Positions 16,217-40,462 are shown, counted from the stretch's first letter. The stretch: DNA of 63,861 bases from Alphaproteobacteria bacterium (GCA_041940205.1 JBGTSP010000002.1:1-63861); one strand, 5' to 3'. Numbers and translations: made by a program. The notes: generated from the sequence alone by a model not told the origin.

Positions 16217-17575
16217 TCAGGGGAACAGGCGGTCGAGGCCTTCGATGATCGATCGGTTTCTGGACTTCAACAGATGGAACGGCGTCAGGTATCGGTGATC
16301 GTCGATGATCAGGGTTCGCGGTACCTCGTCCGCGTCTCGCAGGGACGCTATGGGATCGGACAGAGTCCAGGGGCCGTACAACTGCTTGCTGCTGAGCAAC
16401 ACAGCGATGTTCCTCCGTCCTTCGAGGATCAGGGCGGCCCGAGCCGTCGACGAGCGCGGCCGGGACCAGGCGAGTTGCAGGGGCAGGGGCCTCAGGACCG
16501 CCGGCGAGGTTCCGGGCGGGAGACCGGGCATCGCCCGAACCAGGCGTCGTGTTGCAAGCAGTCTGGCCCTCAGGATCGTGCCGCCATGCAGACGCTGCCG
16601 GACCTCCGTGGCCAGATCGGCGTCGTTGGCGGTGCTCCCACCGACGAGCGTGCTGTCGAAGAAGAGCGTGCAGGCAAAGTCCGCCTTCCAGCGCTCGACA
16701 AGCTCGATGGTTTCCGGACTCAGGTCGGATTCGGCCTCTTCATCGAGTACCTTCAGGACGAAATCGAGCAAAGGCAGACGCGGACGTCCATCACAGAACG
16801 GATCCTCGAGCCACGGTGAGAGGAGATAGTCGAGCACGCTCCAGTCGGACCCGCGCTTTTCCTCCCCGATCTGCGCCGTGAGCACGCCGAGCACGTTCGA
16901 CATCTCCTGATCCGACGTCCCCGCGTGCCGAGCCAGATCGGCAACCCAGACACACAAGCGTCTGGTCACGGCATCGACGAACTTCCAGCGGCCTGCTCGT
17001 GCTTCAGCGCTCGCAAGAATGTCGGTAAACCGGGAGAAGGCTTCTGGCTGATCGACAGCGGCTCGCGTCGTCATCGCAATGCCGGCGCCTGGCTCGAACA
17101 ATCCCAGCAACTGGTGCAGATCACGCCAGATGTCGAGCGCGGGATGTTGCGAGCGATTCAGGATCGTCGAGATCCATCGCGCCGCTTCGGCCTGGTCGCG
17201 TCTTCCGGGCTCGAAGTCCCTCAGGTAGCTGGTGATCAATCGAAGCAGCCCCCGCGCGCCATCTTGCCGTTCGAGGTGTTCACCGCATTGCCGCACCAGT
17301 GCGACGGAATTCTCATCGTCTTGCTGATGCTGCCAGATCACGCTCGGCAGAAACGCCCAGTCCACAGCGGAGAGGACATCGTTCGAGGATCGGTGGCGGG
17401 CTGCACGCAACCTGGCGCGCACCTGCAGAATGTTCGGATCATCTGGTGAATCGAAGATCAGACACTGTGCCCTCTGCATTCGTCGCGCCGTCGCTGACAA
17501 TTCGTTCAAAGGCCCACCGGGCCGAAACAGATCCAGTTTCTGATCGAGACCAGCGAGAGTGGCGCGGGCGCTCAT
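16217..17575 (-). CDS. hypothetical protein, third gene of the MotAB-like module
   Basis: ATG at 17575 lies 10 nt downstream of the MotB-like stop (17586). 452 aa, helical-looking, no recognisable motif. The longer ORF start at 17704 would overlap the upstream gene. Confidence 0.5.
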   Translation of the reverse strand: MSARATLAGLDQKLDLFRPGGPLNELSATARRMQRAQCLIFDSPDDPNILQVRARLRAARHRSSNDVLSAVDWAFLPSVIWQHQQDDENSVALVRQCGEHLERQDGARGLLRLITSYLRDFEPGRRDQAEAARWISTILNRSQHPALDIWRDLHQLLGLFEPGAGIAMTTRAAVDQPEAFSRFTDILASAEARAGRWKFVDAVTRRLCVWVADLARHAGTSDQEMSNVLGVLTAQIGEEKRGSDWSVLDYLLSPWLEDPFCDGRPRLPLLDFVLKVLDEEAESDLSPETIELVERWKADFACTLFFDSTLVGGSTANDADLATEVRQRLHGGTILRARLLATRRLVRAMPGLPPGTSPAVLRPLPLQLAWSRPRSSTARAALILEGRRNIAVLLSSKQLYGPWTLSDPIASLRDADEVPRTLIIDDHRYLTPFHLLKSRNRSIIEGLDRLFP

Positions 17576-17585
17576 GTCGACCTGC

Positions 17586-18719
17586 CTAGCGCTGTCCGGA
17601 AGGCTCGAGCCCGGGCGTGGCCACGAGAAAGCGGAAGTCGATCCGTCTGTTCTGCGCCCGTATGGCGCGTCCCTGTCCGGAAGCTGCCGGGCGGCTGTCG
17701 GCATAGGCGCTCAGGCCGAACAGCGGTTGTCCACGGCTGTTGACCAGACGGTTCAGGTTCGGTTCGGCCTGCAGCAGAGAGCGATAGGTCGTTGCCGAGC
17801 GCAGGGCCGACAGTTCCCAGTTGTCGCGGTACCGGCTGCTGCCGCGTCGAACCGGCTGGTCGTCGGTGTGGCCTTCGACATAGATCGCTTCAAGGGCATT
17901 GGCGGTCGCCGGATTGCAGTCGTTCGATGAGGGGGCCAGGCGTCTGTCCGTATAGCAGGGCAGCAGTTCGACAAGGATGCGGGCGACCGATCCCAGGACG
18001 ACACGCCCGGCCGGCTTCATCTCCGGCTCACCGCTATCGAACAGCAACCGTTCCTTCATCCGCAGGACCGTTCCTGAGACGACAAGGTCGTCATCGGACA
18101 CGTCGAGCTCCTGCCGCAACCGCGCCACGACTTGCAGCAGAAGTCTTCTGGTTGAACTGAAGTTCTGCCGCAGCGCCTTGTCCAGCCGGGTCAACTCTCG
18201 CTTTGTCGCGTTCAACTCGCGTTCGGTTTCCGCGGCTTCCCTGGCAATCCTCTCCCGCTCGCTGGCGTCCTGATCCAGCATGTACCTGAGTTCGATCACC
18301 CTGCCTGTCAGATCGGCCAGCTCGTCGAGCAGTCGCTGACGATCGGCCTGCACCTCCCGGGACTCCGATTGTGTGGCATCGAGCCGGCCGTAGAGTTGAT
18401 CGATCAACTCTCTCTGACTCGCCACGCGCTCCAGCAGTTTCTGCAGACGCAGATTCAGCCGGGCATTCTCCCTCTCCAGGTCGCTCGCCTGAAGATTGAG
18501 GGCAGCTCTGAGTTGCGCTGCCTGTTTCCGCTCGGCCTCGAGAGCATCCAGCTTTTCTGCATAGAGATTGAAATCATACCAGTACGAAATCGCCATCGTG
18601 CCGAACAGGATGATGAATATGAACAATATGCCAATGAAGAGGTCGGAAAGCGGCAGGAACAGAGTATCGCCACCGCCAATGGCGGTAGCATCGTTCAATC
18701 TGTCCCGTTTTCTTATCAT
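17586..18719 (-). CDS. MotB/OmpA-like protein: N-terminal TM with preceding Asp, long coiled coil, C-terminal OmpA-type peptidoglycan-binding domain
   Basis: LPLSDLFIGILFIFIILFGTMAI (Asp before the TM, as in MotB/ExbD). About 200 aa of heptad-like ERxxA/LxxL sequence. C-terminal GHTDDQPV...NWELSALRSATTYRSLL...NRRIDFRF (OmpA_C signature). ATG at 18719 lies 4 nt after the upstream stop. Confidence 0.7.
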   Translation of the reverse strand: MIRKRDRLNDATAIGGGDTLFLPLSDLFIGILFIFIILFGTMAISYWYDFNLYAEKLDALEAERKQAAQLRAALNLQASDLERENARLNLRLQKLLERVASQRELIDQLYGRLDATQSESREVQADRQRLLDELADLTGRVIELRYMLDQDASERERIAREAAETERELNATKRELTRLDKALRQNFSSTRRLLLQVVARLRQELDVSDDDLVVSGTVLRMKERLLFDSGEPEMKPAGRVVLGSVARILVELLPCYTDRRLAPSSNDCNPATANALEAIYVEGHTDDQPVRRGSSRYRDNWELSALRSATTYRSLLQAEPNLNRLVNSRGQPLFGLSAYADSRPAASGQGRAIRAQNRRIDFRFLVATPGLEPSGQR

Positions 18720-18723
18720 GCGT

Positions 18724-20475
18724 TCATTTCGAATCGGTTGTGGACATGCGGCGTTCGAGTTCCTCGATTCTGCCGTCCAGAAGACTGGCAACGCGGGCCG
18801 CATCACGATCCAGCGTGTTCATCGACGCGCTCATGGCTCTCTGATATTCGCCTAGCGCCTTTTCGAGACTGGCGAAGACCCGGGACAGTTCCTTGTCAAT
18901 GCCGGCGAAATGCTCGGCATAGGCCGACCAGACCCTTTCCGCCCGATCGGAAGCCGCCAGCATCTGCGTCTCGAGCGAGCTCAACCTCTCGCCGTGTTTG
19001 CGCAGATGCTGCACCTGTTCGCCGAGCGCCTGCACGGAATCGGCGATCGGCGCCGCCGAGCCGGCCAGTGCGCCGGAGGCCGACTGCAACTCGCTGCTCA
19101 GGGGACCAAGCTTCTCGGCCGCCTTGTTCAATTCCCTCGAGGAACTCTGCAGCCCTTCGACGGCACCGCGCATCTGCGTCGCTGCCCGTTCCGTCTGTTC
19201 GGGCAGTTGAGAGAGCAGATCCCGGGACTGCGCGACGGTGGCGAGCAGGCCTGACTCGATCGACTGGCCGGCCTCCTTTGTGGCGGAAACAAGGGTCGAA
19301 CTCGCACTACCGATGGCATTGCTCATGTTGGCCGCAGATTCGCGGCCGGCTCGGTCGAGGACGGTTCCCAGGGAATCGGCATGCTTGGCCAGTCTTTGCG
19401 CGGACCCGTCCAGCGTTGCCGCACTGCGTTCAGCCGCTTGACCGATCGTGGATTCGAAGGCGTTCAAACGGTCCGACAGGTCACCGATCGATTGCGCCAG
19501 ACGGTCGATCTGTGGTTGGGCGGCGGCCACCAGATCCTTGCCGAAGGCGCTGCTGATCTGCTGCAGCGCGTCCACATTCGCATTGGCCATGTCGGAACCC
19601 AGTTTGTCGACCGCTTCCCGCAGGGCGCTCACCGGTTCCGCCAGGAGCGGTGCGATCTGCCGGCTGACATGAACCGGCAGTTCGCGCACGACATCCACGG
19701 CGGTACCGACAAGCTGATTGCTGGAAGTTGGCACCAGACAGCCGGCCAGTTCGTTCCCGAGGTCGGCCAGCATCCGGTCGAACCGTCGCATCGCCAGATT
19801 GAACCAGATCGAGAAGACGATCGAGGAAAACAGACCGAATATCGATGCTACGAACTTGAACGAAGCCGCGCGGAGCAGGTTCTCCAGGGTCCGCAGCTGG
19901 CTGCCGGAATCCGAGTTTTGCAAGGCGCCCGCCGCTGAGTCCAGGGCGACCAGCAGGCCAACAAACGTCAGGACAAGACCGATTGTCAGCAGATATCCGG
20001 GAACGGCCTGGAAGAACCGCAGGTTGATCCAGACAGGAATCGTGTTGCTGGTGGTAAGGATAAGACGCGGATCGATGTAGCTCCGAACCGCCGTGCCTTG
20101 GGGTTCTATCGCGATCGATTCAGAAACGAACTCGCGCCACACCGATCCAAGACGAGTCTCACTTGACAACGAAGCGTCCAGTTCTCGAAATCGTCGTGCG
20201 GGGTTCTCGATGTCGCTGTTTTGTCTGATCGCCTCCCTGCTCAGCTTTATTCGTTGCCGGACCTTTCGCGTCGATCGAAAGAACCATGTTGATGCAAAAA
20301 TGAACGCTGACAAGACCACCAAAATTCCAAAAACCGGGGTGGTCAGAAGCTCCAATAAGGGAGAATCTGTTGAAATTCCAAAATGAAATTTTGTGAGAAA
20401 GTCGGTATCTGACATGAAGTTTTCCAGAATTCGACAATGTCGACAATCTTGTTCTTCGGATACTTTGATTGTCAA
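18724..20475 (-). CDS. MotA/ExbB/TolQ-like membrane protein with a ~300-aa C-terminal helical tail (ZorA-like architecture)
   Basis: N-terminal TM, then GYLLTIGLVLTFVGLLVAL and FVASIFGLFSSIVFSIWFNLAMRRF (MotA/ExbB channel-helix pattern). A long Ala/Leu/Ser/Glu-rich helical C-terminal tail follows. Alternative start at 20415. Confidence 0.6.
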   Translation of the reverse strand: MTIKVSEEQDCRHCRILENFMSDTDFLTKFHFGISTDSPLLELLTTPVFGILVVLSAFIFASTWFFRSTRKVRQRIKLSREAIRQNSDIENPARRFRELDASLSSETRLGSVWREFVSESIAIEPQGTAVRSYIDPRLILTTSNTIPVWINLRFFQAVPGYLLTIGLVLTFVGLLVALDSAAGALQNSDSGSQLRTLENLLRAASFKFVASIFGLFSSIVFSIWFNLAMRRFDRMLADLGNELAGCLVPTSSNQLVGTAVDVVRELPVHVSRQIAPLLAEPVSALREAVDKLGSDMANANVDALQQISSAFGKDLVAAAQPQIDRLAQSIGDLSDRLNAFESTIGQAAERSAATLDGSAQRLAKHADSLGTVLDRAGRESAANMSNAIGSASSTLVSATKEAGQSIESGLLATVAQSRDLLSQLPEQTERAATQMRGAVEGLQSSSRELNKAAEKLGPLSSELQSASGALAGSAAPIADSVQALGEQVQHLRKHGERLSSLETQMLAASDRAERVWSAYAEHFAGIDKELSRVFASLEKALGEYQRAMSASMNTLDRDAARVASLLDGRIEELERRMSTTDSK

Positions 20476-20769
20476 CCATGTGGAGGGAGTGATGGCCGCA
20501 CGGGAGACACGATCAGCCTTGCAGCAAACTCTGGTCCAGGCAACTGCTGGCGCGCTGCCCGCCGACGTCGGCGCTGCCTTTCTCTGCTACCGCCGTTTGC
20601 CTTCGACAGGACGGCATGATGCATCGCTGGCGCTGCGGCTGGCCTATCGAAGGCATTCGATACCTGTTGGTCGAAGGGTGAGTGCTTTCCTCGTTTCGAT
20701 CGAATAGTCTCCTGCCACATGCATTCCCGGCCTGCCGGCAAACGTCCCGATTGAACTGTCCGGCAGGGA

Positions 20770-21219
20770 TTGCAGAAATCCGGGTGGAGGCGGACAGGAT
20801 TGGGCTTTGCAAGCAGTGTGCTCGCGCATGACGAGTACATCCTGCATTCGGCGAAATTTCACTGGCTGTACACTCTGACGGCATCGGGATTACTGCTGAC
20901 CTTGTTCTGGGTGTTCGGTCTCGGTATCGCGATCTTCGCCATCATGATGATCCGCAAGTGGACGACCGAGCTCGTCGTCACCAACAGGCGGATCATCTTC
21001 AAACGGGGCTGGATCGCGCGGCGCACGGAGGAACTGGCGCTCAACCGGATCGAGGAAATCCGACTGCTTCAGAGCGTGCCCGGTCGCCTGCTGCAGTACG
21101 GCCGGGTCAGCATCGGCGGTATCGGGGTCAGCACGATCACCACGCCCACCATTGCGCATCCCCTCGACTTGCGAAAGGCGATCTACGAGGCGCAGGCGGT
21201 TCTGGCGAGCTCGACCTGA
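20770..21219 (+). CDS. bacterial PH-domain (bPH_2/YdbT-like) membrane protein
   Basis: DEYILHSAKFHWLY, two TM helices, then LVVTNRRIIFKRGWIARRTEELALNRIEEI...GRVSIGG, typical of the DUF304/bPH_2 family. Confidence 0.7.
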   Translation: MQKSGWRRTGLGFASSVLAHDEYILHSAKFHWLYTLTASGLLLTLFWVFGLGIAIFAIMMIRKWTTELVVTNRRIIFKRGWIARRTEELALNRIEEIRLLQSVPGRLLQYGRVSIGGIGVSTITTPTIAHPLDLRKAIYEAQAVLASST

Positions 21220-21291
21220 ACGCGTCACGTTGGCTGGCGCGGCTCCGCCAACCCGGTGATCACGGACGGCGTTTCTTCGCTGGCCGGGACT

Positions 21292-21708
21292 TCAGCGATG
21301 GTCCCGTCTGCTGCCGATCTCCGCCTTGTTCAGACAGAATATGACGGACTGTCCTCTTTCAACCCGGCGTTCGCGAATGCCCGCGAGCAGCCCCTGGGCG
21401 GCCCCGTAGGTCACGTCGGCGCTGCAGGGCAGGTTGTCTTCGTAGATGTGAAACCAGTCATGCAGTTCGGCAAACGTCATGGGCGAATAGTCGGGCACGA
21501 AGCGCTCGACAGCTTCGAGCCTGACCTGCTGCCGCCGCGTGTTCTCCTCACGCTCGATATCCGCCGGCGTCAGACGTGGCGCGTTCTGCGTATCCGACAG
21601 CCATGGCCACGACATCGACGAGCCCGTGCTCGGCCCGACCGGGGGAAGGGCAGAATAGAGCAGGACGAGCAGGCAGGCCGGCGGCAACAGCAGGAAATGC
21701 GCGTTCAT
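21292..21708 (-). CDS. small secreted or periplasmic hypothetical protein (last gene of the minus-strand operon)
   Basis: 138 aa with a signal-peptide-like N-terminus MNAHFLLLPPACLLVLLYSAL. Starts 12 nt after the PBP-like stop. Confidence 0.5.
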   Translation of the reverse strand: MNAHFLLLPPACLLVLLYSALPPVGPSTGSSMSWPWLSDTQNAPRLTPADIEREENTRRQQVRLEAVERFVPDYSPMTFAELHDWFHIYEDNLPCSADVTYGAAQGLLAGIRERRVERGQSVIFCLNKAEIGSRRDHR

Positions 21709-21720: not shown

Positions 21721-24600
21721 TCAGTTCTTGCGCGCTCTGGCGGCGTTCAGCAGGTGGCTCTTCAGCGATGTCCGGATCAGTCGGCCGACCAGCTCGACGG
21801 CGTCACGCGAGCCGTCCAGAGCGTTCTCGAGGCGAACCGCGATCACCAGGGCTGCACGCGGCTCGGCTTCCACATCGACGGTGCTGAAACTGCCGCCGTT
21901 CAGCGGTTTTCCCACCGCGCTCCGGTCGAAGGCGCCCAGGTAGACCACGACAGCGCCGCCGTTCTCCACCTCTTCGAGATCGTCCCGCGCGGCCAGCAGT
22001 TCGCCCTCGTCACTGACATCGAACAGGGCCTGTCGCTGCGCCCTGTTCCTCGAGCGGTTGAACAGTGCGACACGCCAGACGATTTCTCGGACGCTCACCG
22101 CCCGGCCGGGACCGGCGGCCTGCTGGATCCGTTGCCGGTCTCCCTTATTGCCGCTCAACGCGTCGATCGTCGAGTTGTCGAGCGTCCGATCCGCGACGTT
22201 GCGGTATCTGCGAACCACGCCTGCATTCCTGTAGTGGATCTTGCCCGAAGCGCGGTCGTAGTGCAGCGCCTTGTCCTCGATCAGCGCATCGAGGGCGCGC
22301 TTCAACCGGGTCGACTTGCGCGAAACGATTTGCGGCGTGCCGGTCTTGGCGAATACGCCCAGCGCCAGTCCGTGCTGTTCGAGTTCCCGGTCCAACGCAA
22401 CCAGGCTCGACTTCATGCGCCTTGCGGTGCCGGCGGCGGCGGGCAGGGTCAAAGCATTCATCAGTGCCTTGCGGACCGTTGAATCGAGGCCGATCCGGCC
22501 TTTTGTTCCGCGCTGGGCGCCGCATTCCGGACCGATCCGTTGATGCCAGTAGAGCCGGGCGTGCAGGCGGCAGCCGCTGACCAGTCGAGCGAAGGATTCT
22601 GCGGTCTTGACAAGGCTCCAGCGCGATTCCGCCCCACCCAGTACCTGCGAGAGGTAGTCGTCGCGCACGTTGCGGATCAGATTGAACTTCAGGTTGGTCC
22701 TCTCCGGCGAAACGCTGCGAAAGGCGACTTCGCTTGTCGAGGGGGGGCCCTCCTGGTCGGGATAGATTCGCACCAGCAGGTCGCGCCAGATCGCCGTATC
22801 GATCCGGTCGTCACCGGTCCAGAACGGTCTTGACGAGGACGGACTGCCATAGCCGATTTCGCCGTTGGTGCTGTGCACCATGACGGAGAACAGGTCTCTC
22901 ATTTGGCCCGCGACCGGAAGGGTTTCGAACTCACCGGCCTGCGTCGGGTCCCCGGCCCGGGCGAAGGCAAGCCGGGACGGATCCAGTTCGTAGACTTGCC
23001 GGCCGACGACATACTGGCGTTGTCCGACGCGGCAATCCCGCTGGACGGTTGCCACCGGCCGCCGCTCCGGCGGCGCTCGTTCGGCCGCCAGCAGCATGAG
23101 GGCAAAGGCATAGCCGTTCGAGGAATGCTGTATGAAACTGTTCAGATCGACGCACTTCAGCGTCTGCACACTGGCCTGTTCCTTGTCCAGATCGACAGGG
23201 ATTCCGAGGAGCGTCTCGATCGGCGTGCGCAGGCTTTGTCCGGAAAGACGCAAACCGATCAGTTCGGGCCTCTCGTTCAGGATCGCCGCGGCGTAGAATG
23301 CCTTCACGACGGAGCCCATGGGGCGGGCGATGAAGTTCTGGTTGCGCAGTAGACTGGAGTTCAGTTCGGCGCCGTCGTCGTCCGCTTCGCGCTGCGGATA
23401 GCTCGCCAGGGCCAGCAGTTCTCCTGTCCTGGCATCGAGGATGGTCACGGCAGCGCGTTTGGCTTCGTCCTTTCGACCCCGCGACGGGCCATAGCGAAGG
23501 CGCAACTCCTCGACCTTCCGGTTCAGCAGTTCCTGCGTGCCAAGCTGCAGGTCGGGATCGAGAGTGAGCGCGATCCGGTTCGGCCATGCATCGGGTCCGT
23601 TGCGCAGCGACATGCCAGCCGCGTAGGGGCGGTCGAGCAACGACAGGACGGTGCTGTCCAGCACGGCGACCACATCGCGCGCCAGGGGAATCTCCGGTTC
23701 TGCAGGATGACGCTGGAAGCGTCCGTTGACGTTCTGGTGCGTCGACAGGATACGGGCGACACGGGTCAGGTTGACCCAGAACAGACGGGAACGATCGAAT
23801 TTCTCTCCCGTGGGCCGTGTCCGGATCCAGGAGACCCGCACGACATCCCCTTCTTCGAGCCGCCAATGGGTTCCTCGCGCCACCCGCTGTCCGTTGACAT
23901 GGATGCTGCCCCGCGCGCTCTGTACTTCGCTTTCCAGAACGATGAAATCGCCGACGAGACGAAGCGTCGCGATATTCATCTTGCCAAGCGTCAGCCGAAC
24001 CTTCTGACCGCTGGTCTGCGGTTGACCCGCCGACCGTCCGAGCTCGACCAGTTCGAACCGGTCCAGCGTGGCCAGCGGTTCGCGCGGGGGCGAGACAACG
24101 ACGTTGAGATCCTTTGTTTGCAGTCTGCCGGCGATCGCGCTGGGCGGGCGATAGGTCAGCGTCCCGGTCCAGCGCCAGTTACGCCGTCCGATATTTGGCA
24201 GGATCACGTTGTGTGCGAACTGGTCGACGCCGCGAAGACGGCCGTTGCGGATCTCGAAACGCGAATGGTTGCCGCGCTCGTTGAACTCCCGGATGTCGTC
24301 GATCAGATAGGACTTGCGGACATATTCCCTAAGCGCCTTCTTTTCATCGTCGCCTAGTTTCTGGTTCTCGTAGGCTTCCGTGATGACCGTGCGTGTCCGG
24401 CAGGTCTCGCCGGGCAGGCAGGGCATTTCTTCGAGACGCAGCCAGTCGCGCTGGATGTACAGATCCACCATCTGCAGATAACCGCGCGGCTTGTGCACGA
24501 GCTTGGGCGGTTCGCGCTCAATGAACAGGCTGATCCCGACGATGGAGAGAAGCGCCGCCAACGGCAGTGCGATCAGGACGATGACGGGATAATTCCTCAT
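21721..24600 (-). CDS. class B penicillin-binding-protein-like transpeptidase with N- and C-terminal extensions
   Basis: N-terminal TM (MRNYPVIVLIALPLAALLSIVGISLF), LTLDPDLQ, and AAVTILDARTGELLALASYPQ. The motifs SxxK (GSVVKAF), SxN (HSSNGY) and KTG (AKTGTP) occur in canonical order. ATG at 24600 forms an ATGA overlap with the upstream gene. The ORF extension to 25164 is rejected. Confidence 0.7.
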   Translation of the reverse strand: MRNYPVIVLIALPLAALLSIVGISLFIEREPPKLVHKPRGYLQMVDLYIQRDWLRLEEMPCLPGETCRTRTVITEAYENQKLGDDEKKALREYVRKSYLIDDIREFNERGNHSRFEIRNGRLRGVDQFAHNVILPNIGRRNWRWTGTLTYRPPSAIAGRLQTKDLNVVVSPPREPLATLDRFELVELGRSAGQPQTSGQKVRLTLGKMNIATLRLVGDFIVLESEVQSARGSIHVNGQRVARGTHWRLEEGDVVRVSWIRTRPTGEKFDRSRLFWVNLTRVARILSTHQNVNGRFQRHPAEPEIPLARDVVAVLDSTVLSLLDRPYAAGMSLRNGPDAWPNRIALTLDPDLQLGTQELLNRKVEELRLRYGPSRGRKDEAKRAAVTILDARTGELLALASYPQREADDDGAELNSSLLRNQNFIARPMGSVVKAFYAAAILNERPELIGLRLSGQSLRTPIETLLGIPVDLDKEQASVQTLKCVDLNSFIQHSSNGYAFALMLLAAERAPPERRPVATVQRDCRVGQRQYVVGRQVYELDPSRLAFARAGDPTQAGEFETLPVAGQMRDLFSVMVHSTNGEIGYGSPSSSRPFWTGDDRIDTAIWRDLLVRIYPDQEGPPSTSEVAFRSVSPERTNLKFNLIRNVRDDYLSQVLGGAESRWSLVKTAESFARLVSGCRLHARLYWHQRIGPECGAQRGTKGRIGLDSTVRKALMNALTLPAAAGTARRMKSSLVALDRELEQHGLALGVFAKTGTPQIVSRKSTRLKRALDALIEDKALHYDRASGKIHYRNAGVVRRYRNVADRTLDNSTIDALSGNKGDRQRIQQAAGPGRAVSVREIVWRVALFNRSRNRAQRQALFDVSDEGELLAARDDLEEVENGGAVVVYLGAFDRSAVGKPLNGGSFSTVDVEAEPRAALVIAVRLENALDGSRDAVELVGRLIRTSLKSHLLNAARARKN

Positions 24601-27600
24601 TCCGCCGCCGCCTGTCGTTCCCTCAGCAGGTAACCGACCGGCCAGGCCGCCATCAGCAACAGGATCACGCCCTCCAGCAGGTCGCTCTTCGACAGGGCGG
24701 CAAGAAGATAGACATTCTTGCCCGTGAACGGGAGATACCCCATGTTGGCGAGGATCATGTAGGCGTCGGTTGTCAGCACGATAAGGGCCGCGAAGACGGC
24801 AACGGTCGACAGAATGGCAGCACGCCGTCTCCCGGCACCCGCCAGTCCCTTCTCGCCCGGCAGACGTCCCCCGAAGCTCGCCGACAGCCGTTGCGCCGAA
24901 AGGCTGATGATCGCGACCCAGACAGTGACAGCGACGATCAGTGCAACCGCGCCCAGCTGGCCGAAGGGACCCAGGATGTGTACCGCCGGCACGTTGTCGG
25001 TGGTCTGGGTGCTGCGCAGGACCGGTGGCAGGCGCTGTGCCAGAAATCCCTGGCCCAATGGCCCCGAAGCGCTCAGCGACTTCATCGTCTGGGCGACGAT
25101 CAGCAGTTCCTCCGCACTCTTGGTGCCGACCCATTGCAGGCGTTCCGGAGCGAGGGGCTCCCACAGGCGAAGCTGGTTCGTGTGGGTTTCGACCTGATCT
25201 GCAATGAAGGCGATGGCGGCGTCGTCGCTAAGGGAGTCGGGATCGTCCAGTTCCCGGCCGAAGGTCGGTGTACTGAACATCCAGCTTGCGATCGAGTTGG
25301 TCAGGGGCAGTCTCTCCGCGCTGGCGAACCAGATCGTCAACAGGGCCACACTGATCAGGGGAAGGTAGGCTGGCCGGATGTAGACCGGCCATCTGTCCAG
25401 CCAGGCGTTCGCGCGATGCAGAATGTGAGGTCGCGTGGCGCCACTCCCGGCACGAAACACATGGCGGATGGTACCTTCCGCGAGCGGCCATCTTGCCGCG
25501 CCAAGCATCGCGATCAGGATGACGAAGGCGATCAGCATAATGACCGCCAGGCCTGAATCGCTGGCGAGCACGGGCAGGGCAAGACCGAGAAAACCGAAGG
25601 CGAGGATTGAGAACAGCATCCGCCAGGGCCAGATGACTGCATCCAACTGACGCGGTGTATCGGCACACCGCGAGCTCCGCCCAAGTTTGCGTCGGATACA
25701 CGGTAGCGGCCTCACGAACAGGCAACGGAACACCCCGGTCAGCCGTCGTACGGCCCGTCGTCCGGCGTGGAGCGTCAGGGCCACCGTAATCAAGAGCAGT
25801 GGAATTGTCAGTGCGCTCACCGCGATCTGCAGGCCGCCAAACAGGTAGATCCGTTCCTTAACGCCGAACAGCAGGAGGGCGCCCAGGCGCAAGAATCCGA
25901 CAACAATCAGCAGGTAGAACAGAGCCGGCCAGAACCAACGGGGGCTGAACCACCTCAGCAGGCGACGACCCGGGCCCGGTTTCGTGGCCGCCGGGTCGGG
26001 CGGTGTCGGCATCGCGCCGGCCGTGGCTGGGTGCAGACGCGCCGGACGGCGAAGCCAATTGACGAGATAAAGCAGAAGATGTGCAATTGCCCAGGCGATC
26101 AGGGGCAGCAGCACGCCGATCACGACCGCCCCCACCAGCGTTATTCCAAGGTCGATCCGACCCATGGCATAGGCGCCATAGGCCCCGAAACCACTGAGCA
26201 AAACGCCGGCAAAGGTGCTGCGAAACAACCAGGCGACACGCTGATCGCTGGACCCGGGCGGTCGGCTTGTCAAGGTCAGGATGCGCTCGAACAGGAACGG
26301 GATGCACGCATAGACCGGAAGCAGATACCAGAACTGAACCGCGTTTTCCGGGTCGAGATTGGTGCCGGCGATGCCGATAAGCAGGCGGTAGGCCAGCAGG
26401 CTTTCCAGAAGCAGCAAGGTTGCTCCGGCAACCGGCTCGCAGCGCACCGAACCGGTGGTTGCTTCTTCGGACCGTACGAGCCAGATCTGCACGAACAAGA
26501 CGCCGATCACCATGATCAGCACCCCGACAGGAAAGACCTGGGCATCGATCTGCAGCTGAAGCCTGGCTTCCTCACCGATCCAGTGACTGTTCCCGTATTC
26601 CAGGGGTGAAAGGACTGTCTGCTCGGTTGCCAGCCAGGCGCGCGGTTCCGGCGGTTCGAAGCGCAACTGGCCGAACAGCGACCGGCTGAGGTCGCCGCCG
26701 ACAATCGGGAAACGCAGAACGGCGGCTTCCGGCGGGATATAGTGGCCGCTCACGCTGCTCGAACCGACGATGGTGAAGCCCGGAGAGGGGAACTGTTGCG
26801 AAGAGGACGCGCCGCCGTGTCGCGTATCGACGAGGTCGCGCTTCTCCAGTCGCACGGTGTAGGGCGTGTCGAAATGGAAGGATACCGAACGCCCGGTCTC
26901 CGCGCGGACCGTCAGGCTCCGCCGGATCTGCACCCGACTTCTACGGATGGTTCTTTCCTGGGAACGGAAGTAGTCGACACGGAACAGTTCCAGACGAAGG
27001 CTGTTTCCAGGCTGCAGTTCGGCGAGCATGGCGTAGCGCTGGCCTTCGCTGTCGGTATGGATTTCGTCCGAAACCGCCGTTTCCGATGTCAGTGCCTGCT
27101 GGCCGGCTTCCACGCTGACATGGGGATCGAGCATGGCGAGATACAGCCCGTCCTTGAACCAGCCGCCTGCCGAGAGCCAACTCTCGGCCAACGGACTGGC
27201 GGCTCGAAACAGGAACGACCGCGTGGCGTCAATGGTCTCGTCGGGAAGGTTGGCGTTGATCTGTCGCAGGAGATTCTGCAACGGAAAGATCTCGATCTCC
27301 GGTCCGTTCTGCCGTCTGATTCTGAACGAAACTTCCAGGACGGTATTGGTCCTGCTCGGCAGCTCGGTCGCGGCGCCTCCAGGCCCGGTGAAGCGAACCC
27401 CGTCTCCGGTGGCCTGAAGTTCGAACTTCTGCCCGGCCACGGTGAGCTGGCTTGTCTTTCGTCCTGTCAGGTCCTTTGCGGCAGTGAACGGATACCCCGT
27501 GGCCAGGATCGTGGCATTCGGACCGTTGTGCTCCTCTCCGTCTCGCAGCACCCGGACAAGGCCGACGGTGTTCCCGTCCTCGCCGCCCGACGGCTCGGAA

Positions 27601-27962
27601 TCGATCCGGCGATACAGCGCGATGGCGCGCCCGTCAGCACTCTCCACCTTCAGGAAGCCGGCCGGCAGACCGCGTACCACCAGGTCGTCCTGGGCGCTGC
27701 TGCCGCCGATCCGGGCCCCATCCAGATTGACATCAAAGAACGAGAACTGCATGCCGTCGGCGCTGACGATGACATTGCCGAACCGCTCGTGCGAGAGCAT
27801 CAGCACGAGACAGACCAGCGTCGGCGGTGCGACAAGTGCGGTCAGCCAGATCCATCGTGATGTGCCCGAGCGGTCGACCGGATCGGCGCGGCTTCGCCAG
27901 AACGCTGCCAGATAGCAGCACATCGGCAGCAGCAGGCAAATCGTCAGGATCAGTGACTGCAT
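24597..27962 (-). CDS. large polytopic membrane protein with a divergent SEDS (FtsW/RodA)-like C-terminal region and a ~450-aa N-terminal extracytoplasmic region
   Basis: More than 10 predicted TM helices in the C-terminal ~650 aa. GQGFLAQRLPPVLRSTQTTDNVPAVHILGPFGQLGAVALI matches the SEDS pattern G.G......LP...TDFIF..igEE.G..G in a degenerate form. Sits immediately upstream of, and coupled to, a bPBP-like gene, as rodA-pbpA pairs are. Confidence 0.5.
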   Translation of the reverse strand: MQSLILTICLLLPMCCYLAAFWRSRADPVDRSGTSRWIWLTALVAPPTLVCLVLMLSHERFGNVIVSADGMQFSFFDVNLDGARIGGSSAQDDLVVRGLPAGFLKVESADGRAIALYRRIDSEPSGGEDGNTVGLVRVLRDGEEHNGPNATILATGYPFTAAKDLTGRKTSQLTVAGQKFELQATGDGVRFTGPGGAATELPSRTNTVLEVSFRIRRQNGPEIEIFPLQNLLRQINANLPDETIDATRSFLFRAASPLAESWLSAGGWFKDGLYLAMLDPHVSVEAGQQALTSETAVSDEIHTDSEGQRYAMLAELQPGNSLRLELFRVDYFRSQERTIRRSRVQIRRSLTVRAETGRSVSFHFDTPYTVRLEKRDLVDTRHGGASSSQQFPSPGFTIVGSSSVSGHYIPPEAAVLRFPIVGGDLSRSLFGQLRFEPPEPRAWLATEQTVLSPLEYGNSHWIGEEARLQLQIDAQVFPVGVLIMVIGVLFVQIWLVRSEEATTGSVRCEPVAGATLLLLESLLAYRLLIGIAGTNLDPENAVQFWYLLPVYACIPFLFERILTLTSRPPGSSDQRVAWLFRSTFAGVLLSGFGAYGAYAMGRIDLGITLVGAVVIGVLLPLIAWAIAHLLLYLVNWLRRPARLHPATAGAMPTPPDPAATKPGPGRRLLRWFSPRWFWPALFYLLIVVGFLRLGALLLFGVKERIYLFGGLQIAVSALTIPLLLITVALTLHAGRRAVRRLTGVFRCLFVRPLPCIRRKLGRSSRCADTPRQLDAVIWPWRMLFSILAFGFLGLALPVLASDSGLAVIMLIAFVILIAMLGAARWPLAEGTIRHVFRAGSGATRPHILHRANAWLDRWPVYIRPAYLPLISVALLTIWFASAERLPLTNSIASWMFSTPTFGRELDDPDSLSDDAAIAFIADQVETHTNQLRLWEPLAPERLQWVGTKSAEELLIVAQTMKSLSASGPLGQGFLAQRLPPVLRSTQTTDNVPAVHILGPFGQLGAVALIVAVTVWVAIISLSAQRLSASFGGRLPGEKGLAGAGRRRAAILSTVAVFAALIVLTTDAYMILANMGYLPFTGKNVYLLAALSKSDLLEGVILLLMAAWPVGYLLRERQAAAE

Positions 27963-27979: not shown

Positions 27980-29929
27980 TCAGGTCGACTCGTCGGCCTG
28001 GCGCCGTTTCGCCAGCCTTTCGCGACGATGTTCGCTTTCGAACGCGGACGCGAACCGCGGCCGGGCAAACCAGAACCAGAATACCAGCCGATGCAGGAAA
28101 TACAGGCCGGCCGCGAACGCCAGAATGCCCGAGCCCAGAAGCGCCAGAATCTCGACCGAGAACGTGGACAGGGAGGACACCAAGACCCCGAGGCTGCGTC
28201 GCTCACGGATGATCTCGATCGCGACGGATTTTGCCACGCCGGCCTCTTCTGTCCGGCCCTGTGCTTCGAAGCGGCGCATCAGGGTGAACGTCCGCCGAAC
28301 GGCCTCGGACGTTACGGCGTCGATCCAGTCCTTGTGGGTCGACAGCAGGATGTCCCTGTCTTCGAGCTGCCTGACGGTGTCGAAAAAGCGGGACAAGCCG
28401 TCATGGGATCCGGAGATCAGCCGCCGCCATTCAAGAAAGAACAGGAAATGATCGAGGTCCTCGCTTTCCTTCGCGGTGAACAGCGATGTCTCGGCAAACG
28501 GCGGAAAGCCGTTTCCCGACACGATGCGATCACTGGCCGCTTTGCGATAGGCCTGTCGTGACGGCGATGTCCTGCCGGCGGCCACCCTTGACTGCGGCCA
28601 GCGCTGCTGCAACGCCTTTCCATCGACCGCGGCCGACATCAGGGAAATCAGACGGGAGAAAGATGCCTCCCGATCCGAACCGCCGCGCTCGGCAGGGTCG
28701 ATCAGAAGGAGGCGCCGCCGAGCCTGCTCGTAGCGTTCGAGCAACGCCAGCATGAGCGCTAGATTGTGGTTCAGCAGACGATCGTTCCGGGCTCGAGGCT
28801 CTCTCTTGAGCAGGGGCGCCGCCGCCATGAAGGCGGTGATCAGGCCAACGTCCTCGTTCGCCGACGGGGTCCGGGCGCCGGGCGATGCCCCGAACCATTC
28901 GCGGTGCTGGCGGGTGCCGAGTTGTTCCTTCGCGGCCAGCAGGGTGTCTTCGAACCTGGCGCAGTCGCTCTCGAGTTCCGCCACCGCGGGCGGACAGGCA
29001 ACGACCCGGCTGGACAGAAGGCTTGCGATCAGGTCGTTCCAGATCGAGTAGACGCGCAGCCCGAGCGGCTCGACCTTCAGGTCGCTGAATTCGTCATAGG
29101 TCGAGTTGGGAGTTCGTTTGAGATGGCGGGGCAGCAGGGCCAGCGCCTGCCAGAACTGCAATATTCCGGCGCGCAGTCTGAGTTGCATCTGACGGGATTC
29201 GGAACCGGCCAGTTCGCGCACCGTGGTGAGCGCCATCGCGTAGTTGGTGGCAATCTCCGCCATGACGATGCGCGCCTCGTTCTTGTCCTTATTGTCGCTA
29301 CTGTACTTTCCTTCCGAAATCTGCTTTCTCCCGACGGCCAGTCGGGCCGCGGATTTCTTGAAATTCTCGAAGGCGGCGGCGTAGTTGCCACGCCAGAACT
29401 CGATCACACCCAGATTGTACAGGACTGGCCAGCGCACGTTCGATGACGGCACCGCGTTCAGCACCGAATAGGCAGTCTCCAGATCTGCTTTCGCTCTGTT
29501 CGACAATTCTCCAGGTGTCGGTCGGGGTATCCGATCGTTGAGGAGTATCGGCCGTAAAAGCGTGTCGGCCCGCTGCATCTCCTCGAGTCCCAAGCCCTTA
29601 CGGAACGCAAAGACGGCAGTGTCCTGGTAGATCGTCAGGAACGGCCTGAGATCGAACGCAAAGACAGCAAAACGGCGGTCGATCACACTCCCGAGGATCC
29701 GCCGCTCGACATCCGTCAGCTCGGGAAAGCCGCGCCATGGCAGTTCCAGAACCGTCTGCGCCTTCGCTCGCGCGCTGTCGGTCCGACCCTTCAGGACATC
29801 CGAATCCGCGTCGCCGAAAAAGACCCCGTACAGCGCGGCAGCCGCCACCGTCAGTATGCCGGTAATGAAAACCGAAATGATAAAATATCTATTGCGATAT
29901 TTGCCGACATGCGCATCGTCGCCCTGCAA
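27980..29929 (-). CDS. membrane-anchored helical-repeat (TPR-like) protein
   Basis: N-terminal TM (YFIISVFITGILTVAAAALYGVFF) and C-terminal TMs (ILALLGSGILAFAAGLYFL). The middle is helical with a TPR-like stretch (VLYNLGVIEFWRGNYAAAFENFKKS). TTG start as given by the ORF track, so the start is uncertain. Confidence 0.45.
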   Translation of the reverse strand: MQGDDAHVGKYRNRYFIISVFITGILTVAAAALYGVFFGDADSDVLKGRTDSARAKAQTVLELPWRGFPELTDVERRILGSVIDRRFAVFAFDLRPFLTIYQDTAVFAFRKGLGLEEMQRADTLLRPILLNDRIPRPTPGELSNRAKADLETAYSVLNAVPSSNVRWPVLYNLGVIEFWRGNYAAAFENFKKSAARLAVGRKQISEGKYSSDNKDKNEARIVMAEIATNYAMALTTVRELAGSESRQMQLRLRAGILQFWQALALLPRHLKRTPNSTYDEFSDLKVEPLGLRVYSIWNDLIASLLSSRVVACPPAVAELESDCARFEDTLLAAKEQLGTRQHREWFGASPGARTPSANEDVGLITAFMAAAPLLKREPRARNDRLLNHNLALMLALLERYEQARRRLLLIDPAERGGSDREASFSRLISLMSAAVDGKALQQRWPQSRVAAGRTSPSRQAYRKAASDRIVSGNGFPPFAETSLFTAKESEDLDHFLFFLEWRRLISGSHDGLSRFFDTVRQLEDRDILLSTHKDWIDAVTSEAVRRTFTLMRRFEAQGRTEEAGVAKSVAIEIIRERRSLGVLVSSLSTFSVEILALLGSGILAFAAGLYFLHRLVFWFWFARPRFASAFESEHRRERLAKRRQADEST

Positions 29930-29991: not shown

Positions 29992-31548
29992 TCAGAAAAA
30001 CAGATCACGAAAACGAGATCCCGAAAACCTGCGATGAAAAGCAGTCAAGGCCCGGCCGCGCCCGAAATATCCCAATCCCTTCGACGCCGCGCCATTTTTG
30101 CTCTCAAGTTGTTCCCGCAGCCAATGAAAAGCAGGATCTACTCCATAGTGCTCTGTGGAATAAAATACAGTATCTTCGGTTGGTTTTTCTCCATTCATGC
30201 TGAATTCATCGAACGCGGTAACAAAATCTATGCGAAAATCCGAAAATCTTTGCTGAATTACATTGACGATTGTGCTGATGGAGGTGCGTGAAAATTCGAC
30301 AGGATCAAGATCGTATGTTTCACCATATTCATGTTTTTGCTTGCGGTGGAGCAATTTCTCAAGCTGATCTGCTTGCGACATCAACAGCATTATCGGAAGA
30401 TCGACACGCCGCAGTTTTTTCAACGATTTGTCGTCGAGGTCGCTCGCCGTTATCCCCCTTTCCATCATTCCGGCCACACCGTTTTCCAGATTGGCGGATC
30501 GGGTGCGGCAATGGGCTATTGCGTTGGCAATATTCGTGAACGTGCTCTCGTGTTCGCGGAGTTTGCTATGGATAGCTTTGGCTCTTTTTTCCTCCGGATC
30601 TTCTTCCTCCGGATCTTCTTTCTCCGGGCTGCCTTGACCACTCCGGTCTGCGTCTGACGGCCTGGTGTTGAAATCAGGTTCAAGGGCCAGAATATCCGCC
30701 GGAACCACAAAAACGAACGCGTCCGATGCCGCGAGCAAGGCAATCATGTGGCGGGATTGCGAATCCGGGCTTATAGAAAACACGCGATCAAAAAGCGAGC
30801 TGAAGTCTTCGCCGGCAATATCCACAAGCAGGTAATTTTTTGCCGAATGCTTGCCCGCATCCTGGTCCGGCGCGTTCAGCTCGTGCACGAACCAAGCGCC
30901 CGGATCTGTATTTCCGACAATTTCACCTTCCTGTAGCGGAGGCACCGTATCGGGATCGGACTGTTGACGATCAAGGTAGGCGTCTCTGAGTTGCAGGTCG
31001 TATTCAACGCTCCAAGTGACGCGGTCACGTCCGTTCAGTTTGCCTTCGAGTGCCAGCTTCAGGATCCGGCGCAATAGCCATGTTTTTCCGGAGTTCGCGA
31101 AACCGACCACGGTGACGATACAGGTAGCGGGGTCGTCTTGGGCGCGGATAATCTTGTCCAGATTGTCCATTCGCGCGCCGCTTGGCGCCAAACGAGCCTC
31201 ATCCTGTGACGATGATTGCCCGTGGTTGGCGTCCGGAGGATTCTCGTCGATGGGCGCAGCCTCGTGCCCGATCCCGTCGAATTTGGTACCGCCGTTGGCG
31301 CCATCTCCAGCCAAATCATGGCCGGTGGCCGCCTTGCCGTCGGCAGACGCTACGTCATCGACGGGCGTGGCATCGATGTCGGGCGGATCGTCGACCGGCG
31401 GTTGCGCTGGCGTGTCCGCTCGGTCCGCGTCGTCCCCCGTCAGCGGGCCATCAGGCAACGATATTTCGAACGGCTCGCCACAATAGCTGCACAGTGGCGA
31501 CGCTTCGCCGTTATCGGCCTGCAGTTTGCCGCAATGCGGACATTCCAT
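29992..31548 (-). CDS. Zn-ribbon plus P-loop GTPase (paralogue A)
   Basis: MECPHCGK...CSYCGEPF zinc ribbon, an acidic low-complexity linker, G1 VVGFANSGKTWLL, G3 LVDIAGED, and G4-like LLMSQAD. An upstream TTG at 31569 is an alternative start. Confidence 0.65.
   Translation of the reverse strand: MECPHCGKLQADNGEASPLCSYCGEPFEISLPDGPLTGDDADRADTPAQPPVDDPPDIDATPVDDVASADGKAATGHDLAGDGANGGTKFDGIGHEAAPIDENPPDANHGQSSSQDEARLAPSGARMDNLDKIIRAQDDPATCIVTVVGFANSGKTWLLRRILKLALEGKLNGRDRVTWSVEYDLQLRDAYLDRQQSDPDTVPPLQEGEIVGNTDPGAWFVHELNAPDQDAGKHSAKNYLLVDIAGEDFSSLFDRVFSISPDSQSRHMIALLAASDAFVFVVPADILALEPDFNTRPSDADRSGQGSPEKEDPEEEDPEEKRAKAIHSKLREHESTFTNIANAIAHCRTRSANLENGVAGMMERGITASDLDDKSLKKLRRVDLPIMLLMSQADQLEKLLHRKQKHEYGETYDLDPVEFSRTSISTIVNVIQQRFSDFRIDFVTAFDEFSMNGEKPTEDTVFYSTEHYGVDPAFHWLREQLESKNGAASKGLGYFGRGRALTAFHRRFSGSRFRDLFF
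30591..30627. repeat. about 2.5 copies of a 15-bp in-frame tandem repeat inside GTPase A
   Basis: CCTCCGGATCTTCTT occurs at 30591-30605 and 30606-30620, then TCTCCGG. On the coding (minus) strand it encodes the acidic PEKEDPEEEDPEEK linker. Confidence 0.85.
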
Positions 31549-31607
31549 GCTCGGCACCCCGATAAGCAACCATCGGTAGCTTAACGGCCGCCGACAGCGA
31601 GTGCAAT

Positions 31608-40450: not shown

Positions 40451-40462
40451 GCGTCGACGATC

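Follow-up and report, generated by a model that had tools for sequence, protein, structure and literature searches.

The stretch of DNA analysed here (the window, 63,861 nt in total, from an Alphaproteobacteria bacterium; GCA_041940205.1 JBGTSP010000002.1:1-63861) carries on its minus strand two coupled genes, which we call E and F. Gene E (24597-27962) encodes a polytopic membrane protein of 1121 amino acids (aa; P0001), and gene F (21721-24600) a 959-aa protein (P0002) that was characterized from its open reading frame (ORF), profile searches and a family alignment. They are the fifth and sixth genes of a seven-gene cassette. An earlier reading of this DNA from the sequence only had described them as an ATGA-coupled pair. 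Indeed, both lie on the minus strand at these coordinates and the stop codon of gene E overlaps the ATG of gene F as ATGA. The mechanical ORF of gene F extends further upstream, to a GTG at 25164. Gene F probably starts at the ATG at 24600, because this start gives the basic N-terminus and the transmembrane (TM) anchor that are common to all homologues.

Pairs formed by a SEDS protein and a class B penicillin-binding protein (class B PBP, or bPBP) lie at the heart of bacterial wall building and are important targets of antibiotics. To our knowledge, all known SEDS-bPBP pairs are housekeeping or sporulation enzymes and are recognised by standard profiles.

Proteins F and E

Protein F starts with an N-terminal TM anchor (residues 4-28), and in the family the N-terminus is basic ('M.RR'), an arrangement also seen in bPBPs. 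A predicted periplasmic domain of unrecognised fold follows (residues ~30-320), and then a transpeptidase-type domain with large insertions, delimited by motifs, PDB profile search and hhalign (residues 340-959; 21724-23583 on the minus strand, as are all features of F and E given below). This domain contains SxxK (S430-V-V-K433, 23302-23313), SxN (S493-S-N495, 23116-23124) and KTG (K752-T-G754, 22339-22347), in the order noticed in the sequence-only reading. All three are invariant in nine homologues and, since these share only 25-50% identity, the motifs are not there by chance. A 'GG...W' motif is also invariant in the nine homologues and is paired by hhalign with the 'GQG' stretch of the bPBP consensus.

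Searched alone, protein F gave sub-threshold matches only, all of them around SxxK: the Pfam Transpeptidase family PF00905 (E-value 0.0016, 18.2 bits, below the cut-off of 22.1), NCBIfam pbp2_mrdA (E-value 3.6e-4) and PBP3 in the PDB (E-value 5.6e-4). PF00905 was matched by all five family members tested, and the F protein of locus L090 passed the cut-off with 25.3 bits. When a profile built from five F sequences was run against all PDB sequences, it retrieved PBPs only, with class B on top; the best matches were Neisseria PBP2 (3equ, E-value 1.4e-8) and, from the RodA-PBP2 complex, Thermus PBP2 (6pl5_B, E-value 5.6e-7). In hhalign, the alignment of the F family with 67 ordinary bPBPs spans 540 columns, keeps SxxK, SxN and KTG in register and has a probability of 99.1%. 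Its E-value of 1e-18 is inflated, since the 67 sequences had been picked by a motif that F also carries; this selection bias does not affect the searches of the PDB and Pfam. The bPBPs, like the RodA/FtsW and MraY sequences aligned below, came from 80 ordinary PBP loci that a metagenome scan with the 'RTGELLALA' block had returned; no family member was among them. Judged from these profiles, F is a very diverged class-B-PBP-type transpeptidase, whose motifs fall in register with those of real PBPs. The class-B-PBP-like character proposed for it earlier was thus borne out.

The remainder of protein F is less familiar. The sequence-only reading had pointed to the Pfam profiles PBP_dimer and Transpeptidase: the latter is sub-threshold for the window protein alone and passes in L090, and the former, PF03717, which describes the pedestal, matched no F member. 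Matches of the F profile in the PDB begin only at the 'LTLD' linker (~residue 317), and hhalign crosses the pedestal region with near-zero confidence. The transpeptidase domain is enlarged by ~100 aa between SxN and KTG and by ~130 aa after KTG. A C-terminal tail of ~230 aa had been described; the stretch exists, but family alignment with an 800-aa homologue (P0003), which lacks most of the post-KTG stretch and keeps its end, suggests that most of it is the post-KTG insertion, after which the final strands and helix complete the transpeptidase fold. The segment that had been called FHA-like (residues 232-257, 23830-23907) is conserved in the family and predicted to be periplasmic; neither Pfam nor the PDB profile search returned an FHA match for it, and that label found no support.

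Protein E displays two N-terminal TM helices forming a hairpin, a soluble domain of ~410 aa (residues 59-467, 26562-27788) and ~13 further TM helices. This agrees with the extracytoplasmic N-terminal region and polytopic C-terminal part of the sequence-only reading. Family conservation and loop charge define the soluble domain, which is predicted to be periplasmic: TM2 and TM3 enclose it, and the loop preceding TM2, rich in lysine and arginine (K+R), should be inside. It carries a family-conserved motif, 'vGG.d..DDlvV.glP' (G86, G87, D92). The opening of the domain ('vGG.d..DDlvV.glP ... l..Gd') has a superficially FHA-like appearance, as the F segment does, without profile support, since Pfam and profile searches gave no FHA match for protein E. 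The N-terminal domains of E and F share no mutual similarity.

The C-terminal part of protein E (residues 676-1121, 24600-25937) forms a SEDS-like core, which conservation, hhalign, hidden Markov model (HMM) searches and loop charges place as the equivalent of SEDS TM3-TM10. Five helices and the hairpin stand upstream, in place of SEDS TM1-TM2, and the loop equivalent to extracellular loop 4 (ECL4) is ~110 aa long. The loop 'TTDNVPAVHILGPFGQLG' and the motif 'NMGYLPFTGKNVYLLAALSKSD', near the C-terminal end, are the best-conserved parts of the family. In 114 sequences the following core residues are conserved at 95-100%: R692...K702-E703, D802-x-G804 (25551-25559), which is of the PDLG type, R932...P939, G970-x-G972, D989 (24996-24998), which aligns with the catalytic Asp of ECL4, G1001, N1073, P1078-F-T-G1081, S1091 and D1094. 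The top conserved positions over the whole protein in the same 114 sequences are R526, R692, E703, P721, D802, G804, R932, P939, G946, G970, G972, D989, N990, A993, H995, G1001, Y1068, N1073, F1079-T-G1081, N1083, S1091, D1094 and E1097. D802 and G804 are both 100% conserved (n=114); D989, which lies in 'TDNVPA', is conserved in 97% of the 114 members and invariant in a set of 50.

The family was compared with an alignment of SEDS proteins made of E. coli RodA and FtsW and of 26 RodA/FtsW genes located beside ordinary PBP genes in metagenome loci. hhalign of 114 full-length E sequences against this alignment gave a score of 39.1 and an E-value of 3e-4 over 134 columns (295 when extended), with the region from ECL4 to TM10 aligned in the register expected from the motifs. 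Reversed alignments scored 16 (E-value ~0.4), 60 block-shuffled and reversed versions scored 17.5 +/- 2.2 with a maximum of 24.1, and the E family scored 17.3 against MraY, a real ten-TM protein used as a decoy. The HMM of the E family ranked SEDS proteins above MraY (median best-domain score 4.6 vs -2.2 bits, Mann-Whitney p 5e-9) and likewise above SEDS sequences that had been reversed or block-shuffled (p ~1e-5), p-values that are optimistic since the SEDS sequences are mutually related. Its best hit was a RodA-like protein, with an E-value of 7e-5 among 65 targets, aligned in two colinear stretches. The first places D802-x-G804 on the SEDS 'PDLG' motif, as the extended hhalign alignment also does, and the second places D989 on the Asp of 'TDFIF'. 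The E. coli RodA counterparts are D159 (PDLG, between TM5 and TM6) and D262 ('TDFIFA', in ECL4).

Motif order and predicted topology point the same way. From R692 onwards, the motifs of protein E succeed one another as in SEDS proteins: R...G, the start of TM4, PDLG, R.R(I/L)...P, G.G.G, TDFIFA..G and N.G..P.tG...S. Family-averaged hydropathy and K+R counts predict loops that alternate between K+R-rich and K+R-poor as those of SEDS TM3-TM10 do, with all the conserved polar residues in the K+R-poor, periplasmic loops, with the two ends of the eight-helix core oriented as in TM3-TM10 and with a cytoplasmic C-terminus.

Several results weigh against this assignment, and with it against the enzymatic function proposed for the pair below. 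The Pfam family FTSW_RODA_SPOVE (PF01098), which the sequence-only reading had put forward as a check, was matched neither by the window protein nor, at an E-value up to 1, by any of 50 E family members. A 50-sequence profile of the family run against the PDB retrieved neither RodA nor FtsW. The hhalign probability for the E-SEDS alignment is only 30-38%, and an unrelated pair, SEDS and MraY, reached a score of 27.2, so that the E-SEDS score stands apart by a genuine but modest margin. The family does not conserve the QPSE/E-K motif of SEDS TM4 and has 'G.KER......AVS..YTP' instead. An AlphaFold2 model of protein E, made from a three-sequence alignment, had a mean confidence (predicted local distance difference test, pLDDT) of 43 and gave only noise in Foldseek against the PDB.

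Other searches were equally silent: protein E alone had no match among Pfam, NCBIfam, PADLOC or PDB sequences, and its scores against a purpose-built SEDS HMM were non-significant. The alignments disagree on which residue of protein E matches the QPSE..K position. The sequence-only reading had noted that a QPSE-type motif was not evident, which is correct for the family as a whole. It had also likened a loop of protein E to FtsW/RodA; that loop is real and the SEDS similarity exists at the level of profiles, but sequence searches of Pfam and the PDB find nothing of it. Altogether, the similarity of protein E to SEDS proteins is probably specific, though weak and of profile level only. Weighed together with the class-B-PBP-type product of the partner gene, it makes a SEDS ancestry of protein E likely in our view.

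The E family and the seven-gene cassette

Word-indexed searches retrieved protein E only as itself, one homologue of F and two fragments matching the C-terminus of E. Such searches made the pair look like an orphan, as which the sequence-only reading had also presented it; exhaustive HMMER overturned this. A profile of 206 positions from the E C-terminus, run against 1.84 billion representative proteins (clusters at 50% identity), matched 527 representatives at an E-value up to 1e-3, of which 378 at an E-value up to 1e-10. Family members are typically 900-1000 aa long, their conserved region is always C-terminal, and where they are named they are called 'hypothetical protein'. Among the carriers, those with a name are Acidobacteriota (including Thermoanaerobaculia), Phaeospirillum, Brevundimonas, Rhizomicrobium and unclassified Alphaproteobacteria. 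The family also occurs in metagenomes, from which most 90% clusters come as singletons, and its taxonomy is patchy.

Gene content was read at the window and at loci L001, L083 (a short contig), L086/87, L088/89, L090/91, L092, L093, L094 and L095. At every locus read, counted as nine distinct ones, an F homologue directly follows gene E. The same seven genes, A to G, occur in the same order and tightly spaced at six loci, namely the window, L086, L088, L090, L094 and L095. Homology between loci extends to genes B, C, D, E and F. Genes A and G keep their architecture and are similar by BLAST only between close loci; neither matched a Pfam family. All seven genes lie on the minus strand of the window.

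The first gene, A (479 aa, 33953-35392), which also opens the other five complete cassettes, encodes a protein in which a cytoplasmic coiled coil is followed by a single TM helix (~176-207) and by an extracytoplasmic domain with Cys. This architecture is common to all copies, and the protein is fast-evolving. Gene B (768 aa, 31608-33914) encodes a cytoplasmic protein, with no predicted TM helix and a GAP1-N2-like N-terminus, that is homologous to the B proteins of L086 (E-value 3e-11) and L090 (1e-16). The GAP1-N2 family was matched in register by three of the six B proteins, from the window (E-value 0.13), L090 (2e-4) and L095 (7.9e-5), always below threshold (best score 23.2 bits for a cut-off of 24); the L095 protein is the only one that also matched GAP1-M (E-value 0.005). 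GAP1-C was not seen in the B proteins, nor GAP1-N2 in the product of the 527-aa gene found at the B position of L092.

Gene C (525 aa, 29992-31569) encodes a zinc ribbon followed by a P-loop GTPase that resembles the DO-GTPase2 type, and is homologous to the C genes of all other cassettes. The window protein matched Pfam DO-GTPase2 with an E-value of 6.8e-5 and 23.1 bits (cut-off 27). Five of the seven C proteins matched this family, the others being those of L088, L090, L094 and L095, with E-values from 2e-5 to 6e-3 and all under 27 bits. Their alignment displays a CxxC...CxxC ribbon and a GxxxxGK(T/S) P-loop, and zinc-ribbon families were matched too. Gene D (649 aa, 27980-29929) encodes a TM helix, a TPR-containing domain of ~540 aa predicted to be periplasmic, a second TM helix and a basic cytoplasmic tail. 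The TPR matches are weak; TM helices at both ends and basic termini are found in six of six copies. The window D protein is weakly similar to those of L086 and L090, and similarity is strong between closer loci. Gene G (138 aa, 21292-21708), the last one, encodes a small N-anchored protein, predicted to be periplasmic, with two conserved Cys ('..C(S)A...LCL..'). In L086, L088, L090, L092, L094 and L095, too, the gene after F is a small one (107-153 aa), and G of L095 matches G of L090 with an E-value of 7e-15.

Two loci carry variants. In Brevundimonas (L092) the order is a 527-aa gene, C, a 181-aa gene, E, F and a 131-aa gene. In L093 (539-17573) two Ser/Thr kinases, one of 920 aa with PEGA and one of 1377 aa, lie directly upstream of E-F, which is followed by FGE-sulfatase, pYEATS, metallophosphatase and PDDEXK genes and by a third kinase with PG_binding_1; an integrase fragment is present at the start of this contig. 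Therefore, E-F is the invariant module and the accompanying switch is exchangeable.

The surroundings also vary. In L095 a defence-type pair, SIR2_2 and an nSTAND1-WD40 protein of 1156 aa (13047-17527, minus strand), adjoins the cassette and is followed by dap biosynthesis genes. The neighbours are vWA-PP2C genes in L086 and an SLT-LysM lytic transglycosylase in L090. L094 is flanked by housekeeping genes and an IS1 remnant, and L088 by plain housekeeping genes. Such surroundings fit a mobile accessory module prone to settle near defence genes, although they do not prove a function in defence. The cassette is widespread and horizontally scattered, and hitherto undescribed; no prior description of such a pair or cassette was found in the literature.

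L086 and L087 are the same Phaeospirillum-type cassette from two assemblies. L087 differs by a DDE transposase after gene G and by the start call of gene F (952 vs 959 aa).

The defence island in the window

The region of the window that holds the cassette is a defence island, as the sequence-only reading had proposed. A Zorya ZorABC set detected by a PADLOC scan lies just downstream of the cassette (16217-20475, minus strand) and comprises ZorA (18724-20475, E-value 1e-41), ZorB (17586-18806, 5e-56) and ZorC (16217-17704, 9e-9). It is type I-like, with no ZorD-like gene after ZorC on the same strand, and is abutted by a convergent UvrD-like helicase gene (13189-15252, plus strand) and a 285-aa ORF (15252-16109, plus strand). 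Between gene G and zorA are two small minus-strand ORFs, of 112 aa (20890-21228) and 122 aa (20472-20840, overlapping the mechanical zorA start by 4 nt); neither has a family match, and they are absent after gene G at the other loci. Zorya was considered as a part of the cassette system and rejected, because the cassette at all other loci ends with gene G and none of these loci carries ZorAB.

Farther left is a run of restriction and helicase genes on the plus strand (1829-15252). Its products are a ResIII helicase that also has an endonuclease domain, GmrSD_N, a 951-aa DNA methylase of the N6/N4 kind, the product of a 207-aa ORF, a DEAD/Helicase_C protein of 876 aa and the UvrD-like helicase mentioned above, which has a weak HigB-like match at its N-terminus and good Pfam support for its ORF. 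ARAGORN called a tRNA-Arg(GCG) inside the latter (14510-14580, plus strand), which is probably a false positive.

On the other side of the cassette is a divergently transcribed, bona fide GAP1-N2 system with an HSP70 theme (35682-48951, plus strand). It consists of HSP70 (36652-38304), HSP70-vWA (38339-40450), a protein of 1000 aa that matches BTAD weakly, DO-GTPase2 (43359-44711), GAP1-N2/M (44715-47372) and DO-GTPase2/1 (47566-48951). The run of plus-strand genes, 35682-50106, also includes a 298-aa ORF before HSP70 and a 353-aa ORF at its end. Two systems of the GTPase/GAP1 type thus stand back to back in the window. The sequence-only reading had seen the pair as embedded between GTPase and chaperone genes; the GTPase turns out to be a member of the same cassette, and the HSP70 genes belong to the separate, divergent system.

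The G+C content stays within 53-66% from 1 to 50 kb and climbs abruptly to 70-75% at 50-64 kb, a pattern expected of an acquired island. The step at ~50 kb is probably the right-hand border of this island in a host of very high G+C. On the flanks (1-1.8 kb and 49-64 kb) Pfam matched only a CapC-like domain (57591-59603, minus strand). A promoter and terminator scan over 16-36 kb gave counts not above those of shuffles and is therefore uninformative on operon limits.

Possible functions and comparison with known systems

We propose, with somewhat less than even confidence, that E-F is an accessory peptidoglycan polymerase/transpeptidase gated by a GTPase, and the core of a seven-gene envelope cassette. 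Protein E would be a strongly diverged SEDS-type membrane glycosyltransferase that has kept D802 and D989 and gained extra helices and a periplasmic domain. Protein F would be its class-B-PBP-type partner, with an anchor, a replaced pedestal and a transpeptidase domain whose motifs are intact. If the pair works as RodA-PBP2 and FtsW-FtsI do, E would polymerise lipid II and F would cross-link the product. The predicted periplasmic parts of A, D and G might stand in for activators, in place of MreC or FtsQLB/FtsN. The C GTPase and the GAP1-like B protein would form a cytoplasmic switch setting when the synthase is on, in line with the sensor-switch-effector scheme put forward for DO-GTPase systems (PMC7159879), a role that the Ser/Thr kinases may take over at L093. 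A signal, probably related to the envelope or to an invader, would set the GTPase, whose change would be relayed through the membrane-spanning partners. Once switched on, the E-F synthase would remodel, seal or mis-build peptidoglycan. The outcome might be protection, through a remodelled or sealed wall, or suicide by depletion of lipid II. The cassette would then be an accessory module of the conflict or defence type, and not a housekeeping elongasome or divisome. The homology of F, the conserved motifs, the cassette and the variety of its neighbourhoods are shown by the data, whereas the SEDS ancestry of E, catalysis by E-F, gating by the GTPase and a role in defence are inferred. The sequence-only reading had offered three functions, namely a specialised wall structure, a decoy or sensor for wall-targeting attack, and an effector that mis-synthesises peptidoglycan, all of which are still guesses.

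The findings that speak against this proposal, beyond those listed for protein E, concern its defence and switch components. A defence role may be assigned to the cassette by gene neighbourhood only (guilt by association). PADLOC-DB v2 has no model for proteins A-F, and the same scan finds ZorA, ZorB and ZorC. No relatives occurred in IMG/VR viral contigs or PLSDB plasmids. AlphaFold2 gave for protein F, from a two-sequence alignment, a pLDDT of 31, which is no usable three-dimensional model. We know of no experiments on the E-F family or on any DO-GTPase system. The cassette also departs from the GAP1-N2 DO-GTPase systems described by Kaur, Burroughs, Iyer & Aravind (2020; PMC7159879): its matches to DO-GTPase2 and GAP1 are all below the Pfam cut-offs, its GAP1-like gene precedes the GTPase gene instead of lying downstream as is typical, and no cassette protein has a Pfam FNIII match, unlike the published systems.

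A narrower version, which we regard as possible but rather doubtful, is that the cassette is an immune system whose output is regulated peptidoglycan synthesis: its switch, alerted by periplasmic sensors, would make the synthase either seal or thicken the wall at the site of attack or fatally misdirect lipid II. It could then block genome injection or lysis from within, or act as abortive infection. This would be the first defence system with a cell-wall polymerase as effector, and the first function for a system of the DO-GTPase/GAP1 type.

Alternatively, the pair might be a sensor, which we consider unlikely. The PBP-like domain of F would bind, or be acylated by, a wall ligand or a beta-lactam, as in BlaR1/MecR1; the ligands could be D-Ala-D-Ala stems or muropeptides released by phage lysins. 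Protein E would serve as transducer, the GTPase/GAP1-like pair as downstream switch, and the real effector would lie elsewhere, e.g. in the fast-evolving A or G or in a neighbouring system. An acylation sensor would likewise conserve SxxK, SxN and KTG, and the SEDS-activating pedestal of real bPBPs is not recognisable in F. Moreover, A and G evolve as fast as adversary-facing parts would, and GAP1 systems have been viewed as a sensor-switch-effector chain (PMC7159879). However, the residues of protein E conserved at 95-100% align with the SEDS active-site Asp and with ECL4/ECL5, which is hard to reconcile with a passive transducer. The strict E-F coupling, with overlapping stop and start, mirrors that of enzyme pairs, and Pfam recognises no effector domain in the cassette proteins.

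We give little credence as well to a morphogenetic role, in which E-F would be an extra, GTPase-controlled elongasome or divisome for the wall of a stalk, cyst, spore-like cell or aggregate, and its location in an island would be incidental. Pairs dedicated to a special wall, such as SpoVE-SpoVD, and rodA-pbpA clusters linked to signalling do exist. At L093, E-F lies beside Ser/Thr kinases with PEGA and PG-binding domains; the carriers include stalked or differentiating Alphaproteobacteria (Brevundimonas, Rhizomicrobium); and a lytic transglycosylase or housekeeping genes are the neighbours at L090, L088 and L094. The patchy, cross-phylum distribution in near-singleton clusters does not fit such a role, nor do neighbours that differ in every genome, with transposase or integrase remnants. 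In addition, the cassette repeatedly adjoins known or predicted defence genes, and the families that its switch proteins resemble have been described only in predicted conflict systems.

Finally, it is quite improbable that protein E is unrelated to SEDS proteins, its motif likeness being convergent or fortuitous, with E a polytopic protein of new fold (a transporter, a scaffold or some other enzyme of lipid-linked glycans, for instance a Wzy/WaaL-like polymerase or ligase) and F a hydrolase or carboxypeptidase of the beta-lactamase fold acting on a non-peptidoglycan or trimmed substrate: the silence of Pfam (50 members) and of the PDB profile search, the hhalign probability below 40%, the missing QPSE, the five extra TM helices, the large insertions and the lack of a reliable three-dimensional model would all agree with this, but two separate colinear stretches align with SEDS at its two key Asp, the score is well outside the reversed, shuffled and decoy nulls, the loop-charge topology fits, and F resembles the class B PBPs that are the hallmark partners of SEDS proteins.

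The E family is a large one missed by profiles, three times the usual size, linked to a conflict-type GTPase switch and recurrent beside defence genes. If E-F is indeed a GTPase-gated wall synthase, several consequences follow. The range of SEDS sequences and architectures would be wider than thought. DO-GTPase/GAP1 systems would gain a concrete, assayable output, and regulated wall synthesis as an immune or stress response would become testable. Even without a link to defence, a self-contained 'portable wall synthase' of seven genes would be useful for studying the activation of SEDS-bPBP pairs.

The closest known counterparts are the SEDS-class B PBP pairs RodA-PBP2 (MrdB-MrdA), FtsW-FtsI and SpoVE-SpoVD, the last of which serves a special wall. 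As in these pairs, a polytopic protein and an N-anchored PBP are encoded side by side and are translationally coupled. F shares with the known bPBPs a homologous transpeptidase domain that has SxxK, SxN and KTG. The last eight helices of protein E are predicted to be colinear with TM3-TM10, with motifs that keep both their order and their side of the membrane: the PDLG-type Asp, Arg...Pro of ECL4, a Gly-rich stretch, the catalytic Asp, and N.G..P.TG / S. In contrast, protein E lacks QPSE and is three times longer, as it has its hairpin, a periplasmic domain of 410 aa, five additional TM helices and a ~110-aa ECL4. It is wholly missed by PF01098. F has no recognisable PBP_dimer pedestal, and its transpeptidase domain contains insertions of ~100-130 aa. 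In the cassette the SEDS-like gene comes first and the PBP-like gene second. The partners are GTPase, GAP1-like, TPR and small bitopic proteins instead of MreCD/FtsQLBN, and the distribution is patchy and island-like whereas that of the known pairs is universal. Other synthases do have TPR proteins, among them LpoA and CpoB, as periplasmic activators.

BlaR1/MecR1 sensors are membrane proteins with an extracytoplasmic penicillin-binding sensor domain; that of BlaR1 resembles class D beta-lactamases and is fused to a zinc protease. The cassette likewise ties a serine penicillin-binding-fold domain with intact acylation motifs to transmembrane signalling components. However, the best matches of F are class B PBPs only, and its membrane partner resembles a glycan polymerase.

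In Actinobacteria, the fhaA-fhaB-pstP-rodA-pbpA-pknA-pknB cluster ties a SEDS-bPBP pair to signalling kinases and FHA proteins. Its RodA and PbpA are canonical, the cluster is vertically conserved and it is needed for normal growth. The cassette, too, would combine a SEDS-bPBP pair with nucleotide-dependent signalling, and in L093 kinases stand upstream of E-F. The E-F family differs in being extremely diverged, mostly linked to a GTPase, and patchy.

On the switch side, the relevant systems are the GAP1-N2 DO-GTPase systems, which are predicted to act at the membrane or cell wall (PMC7159879). The cassette resembles them by its zinc-ribbon TRAFAC GTPase with sub-threshold matches to DO-GTPase2, accompanied by a large protein with similarly weak matches to GAP1-N2 and, once, to GAP1-M, by its many TM partners, among them a TPR-containing one, and by its variable flanking components. 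It differs by having one GTPase instead of two and no detected GAP1-C, and by the kinases that replace this switch in L093. The published account makes no mention of transpeptidase, penicillin, FtsW, RodA, SEDS or lactamase components, and reports TPR repeats only as fusions to an FNIII protein (PMC7159879). Thus, the cassette is novel on two counts: it holds a giant, decorated SEDS-like/bPBP-like pair, and it represents a new theme of GTPase-centric system.

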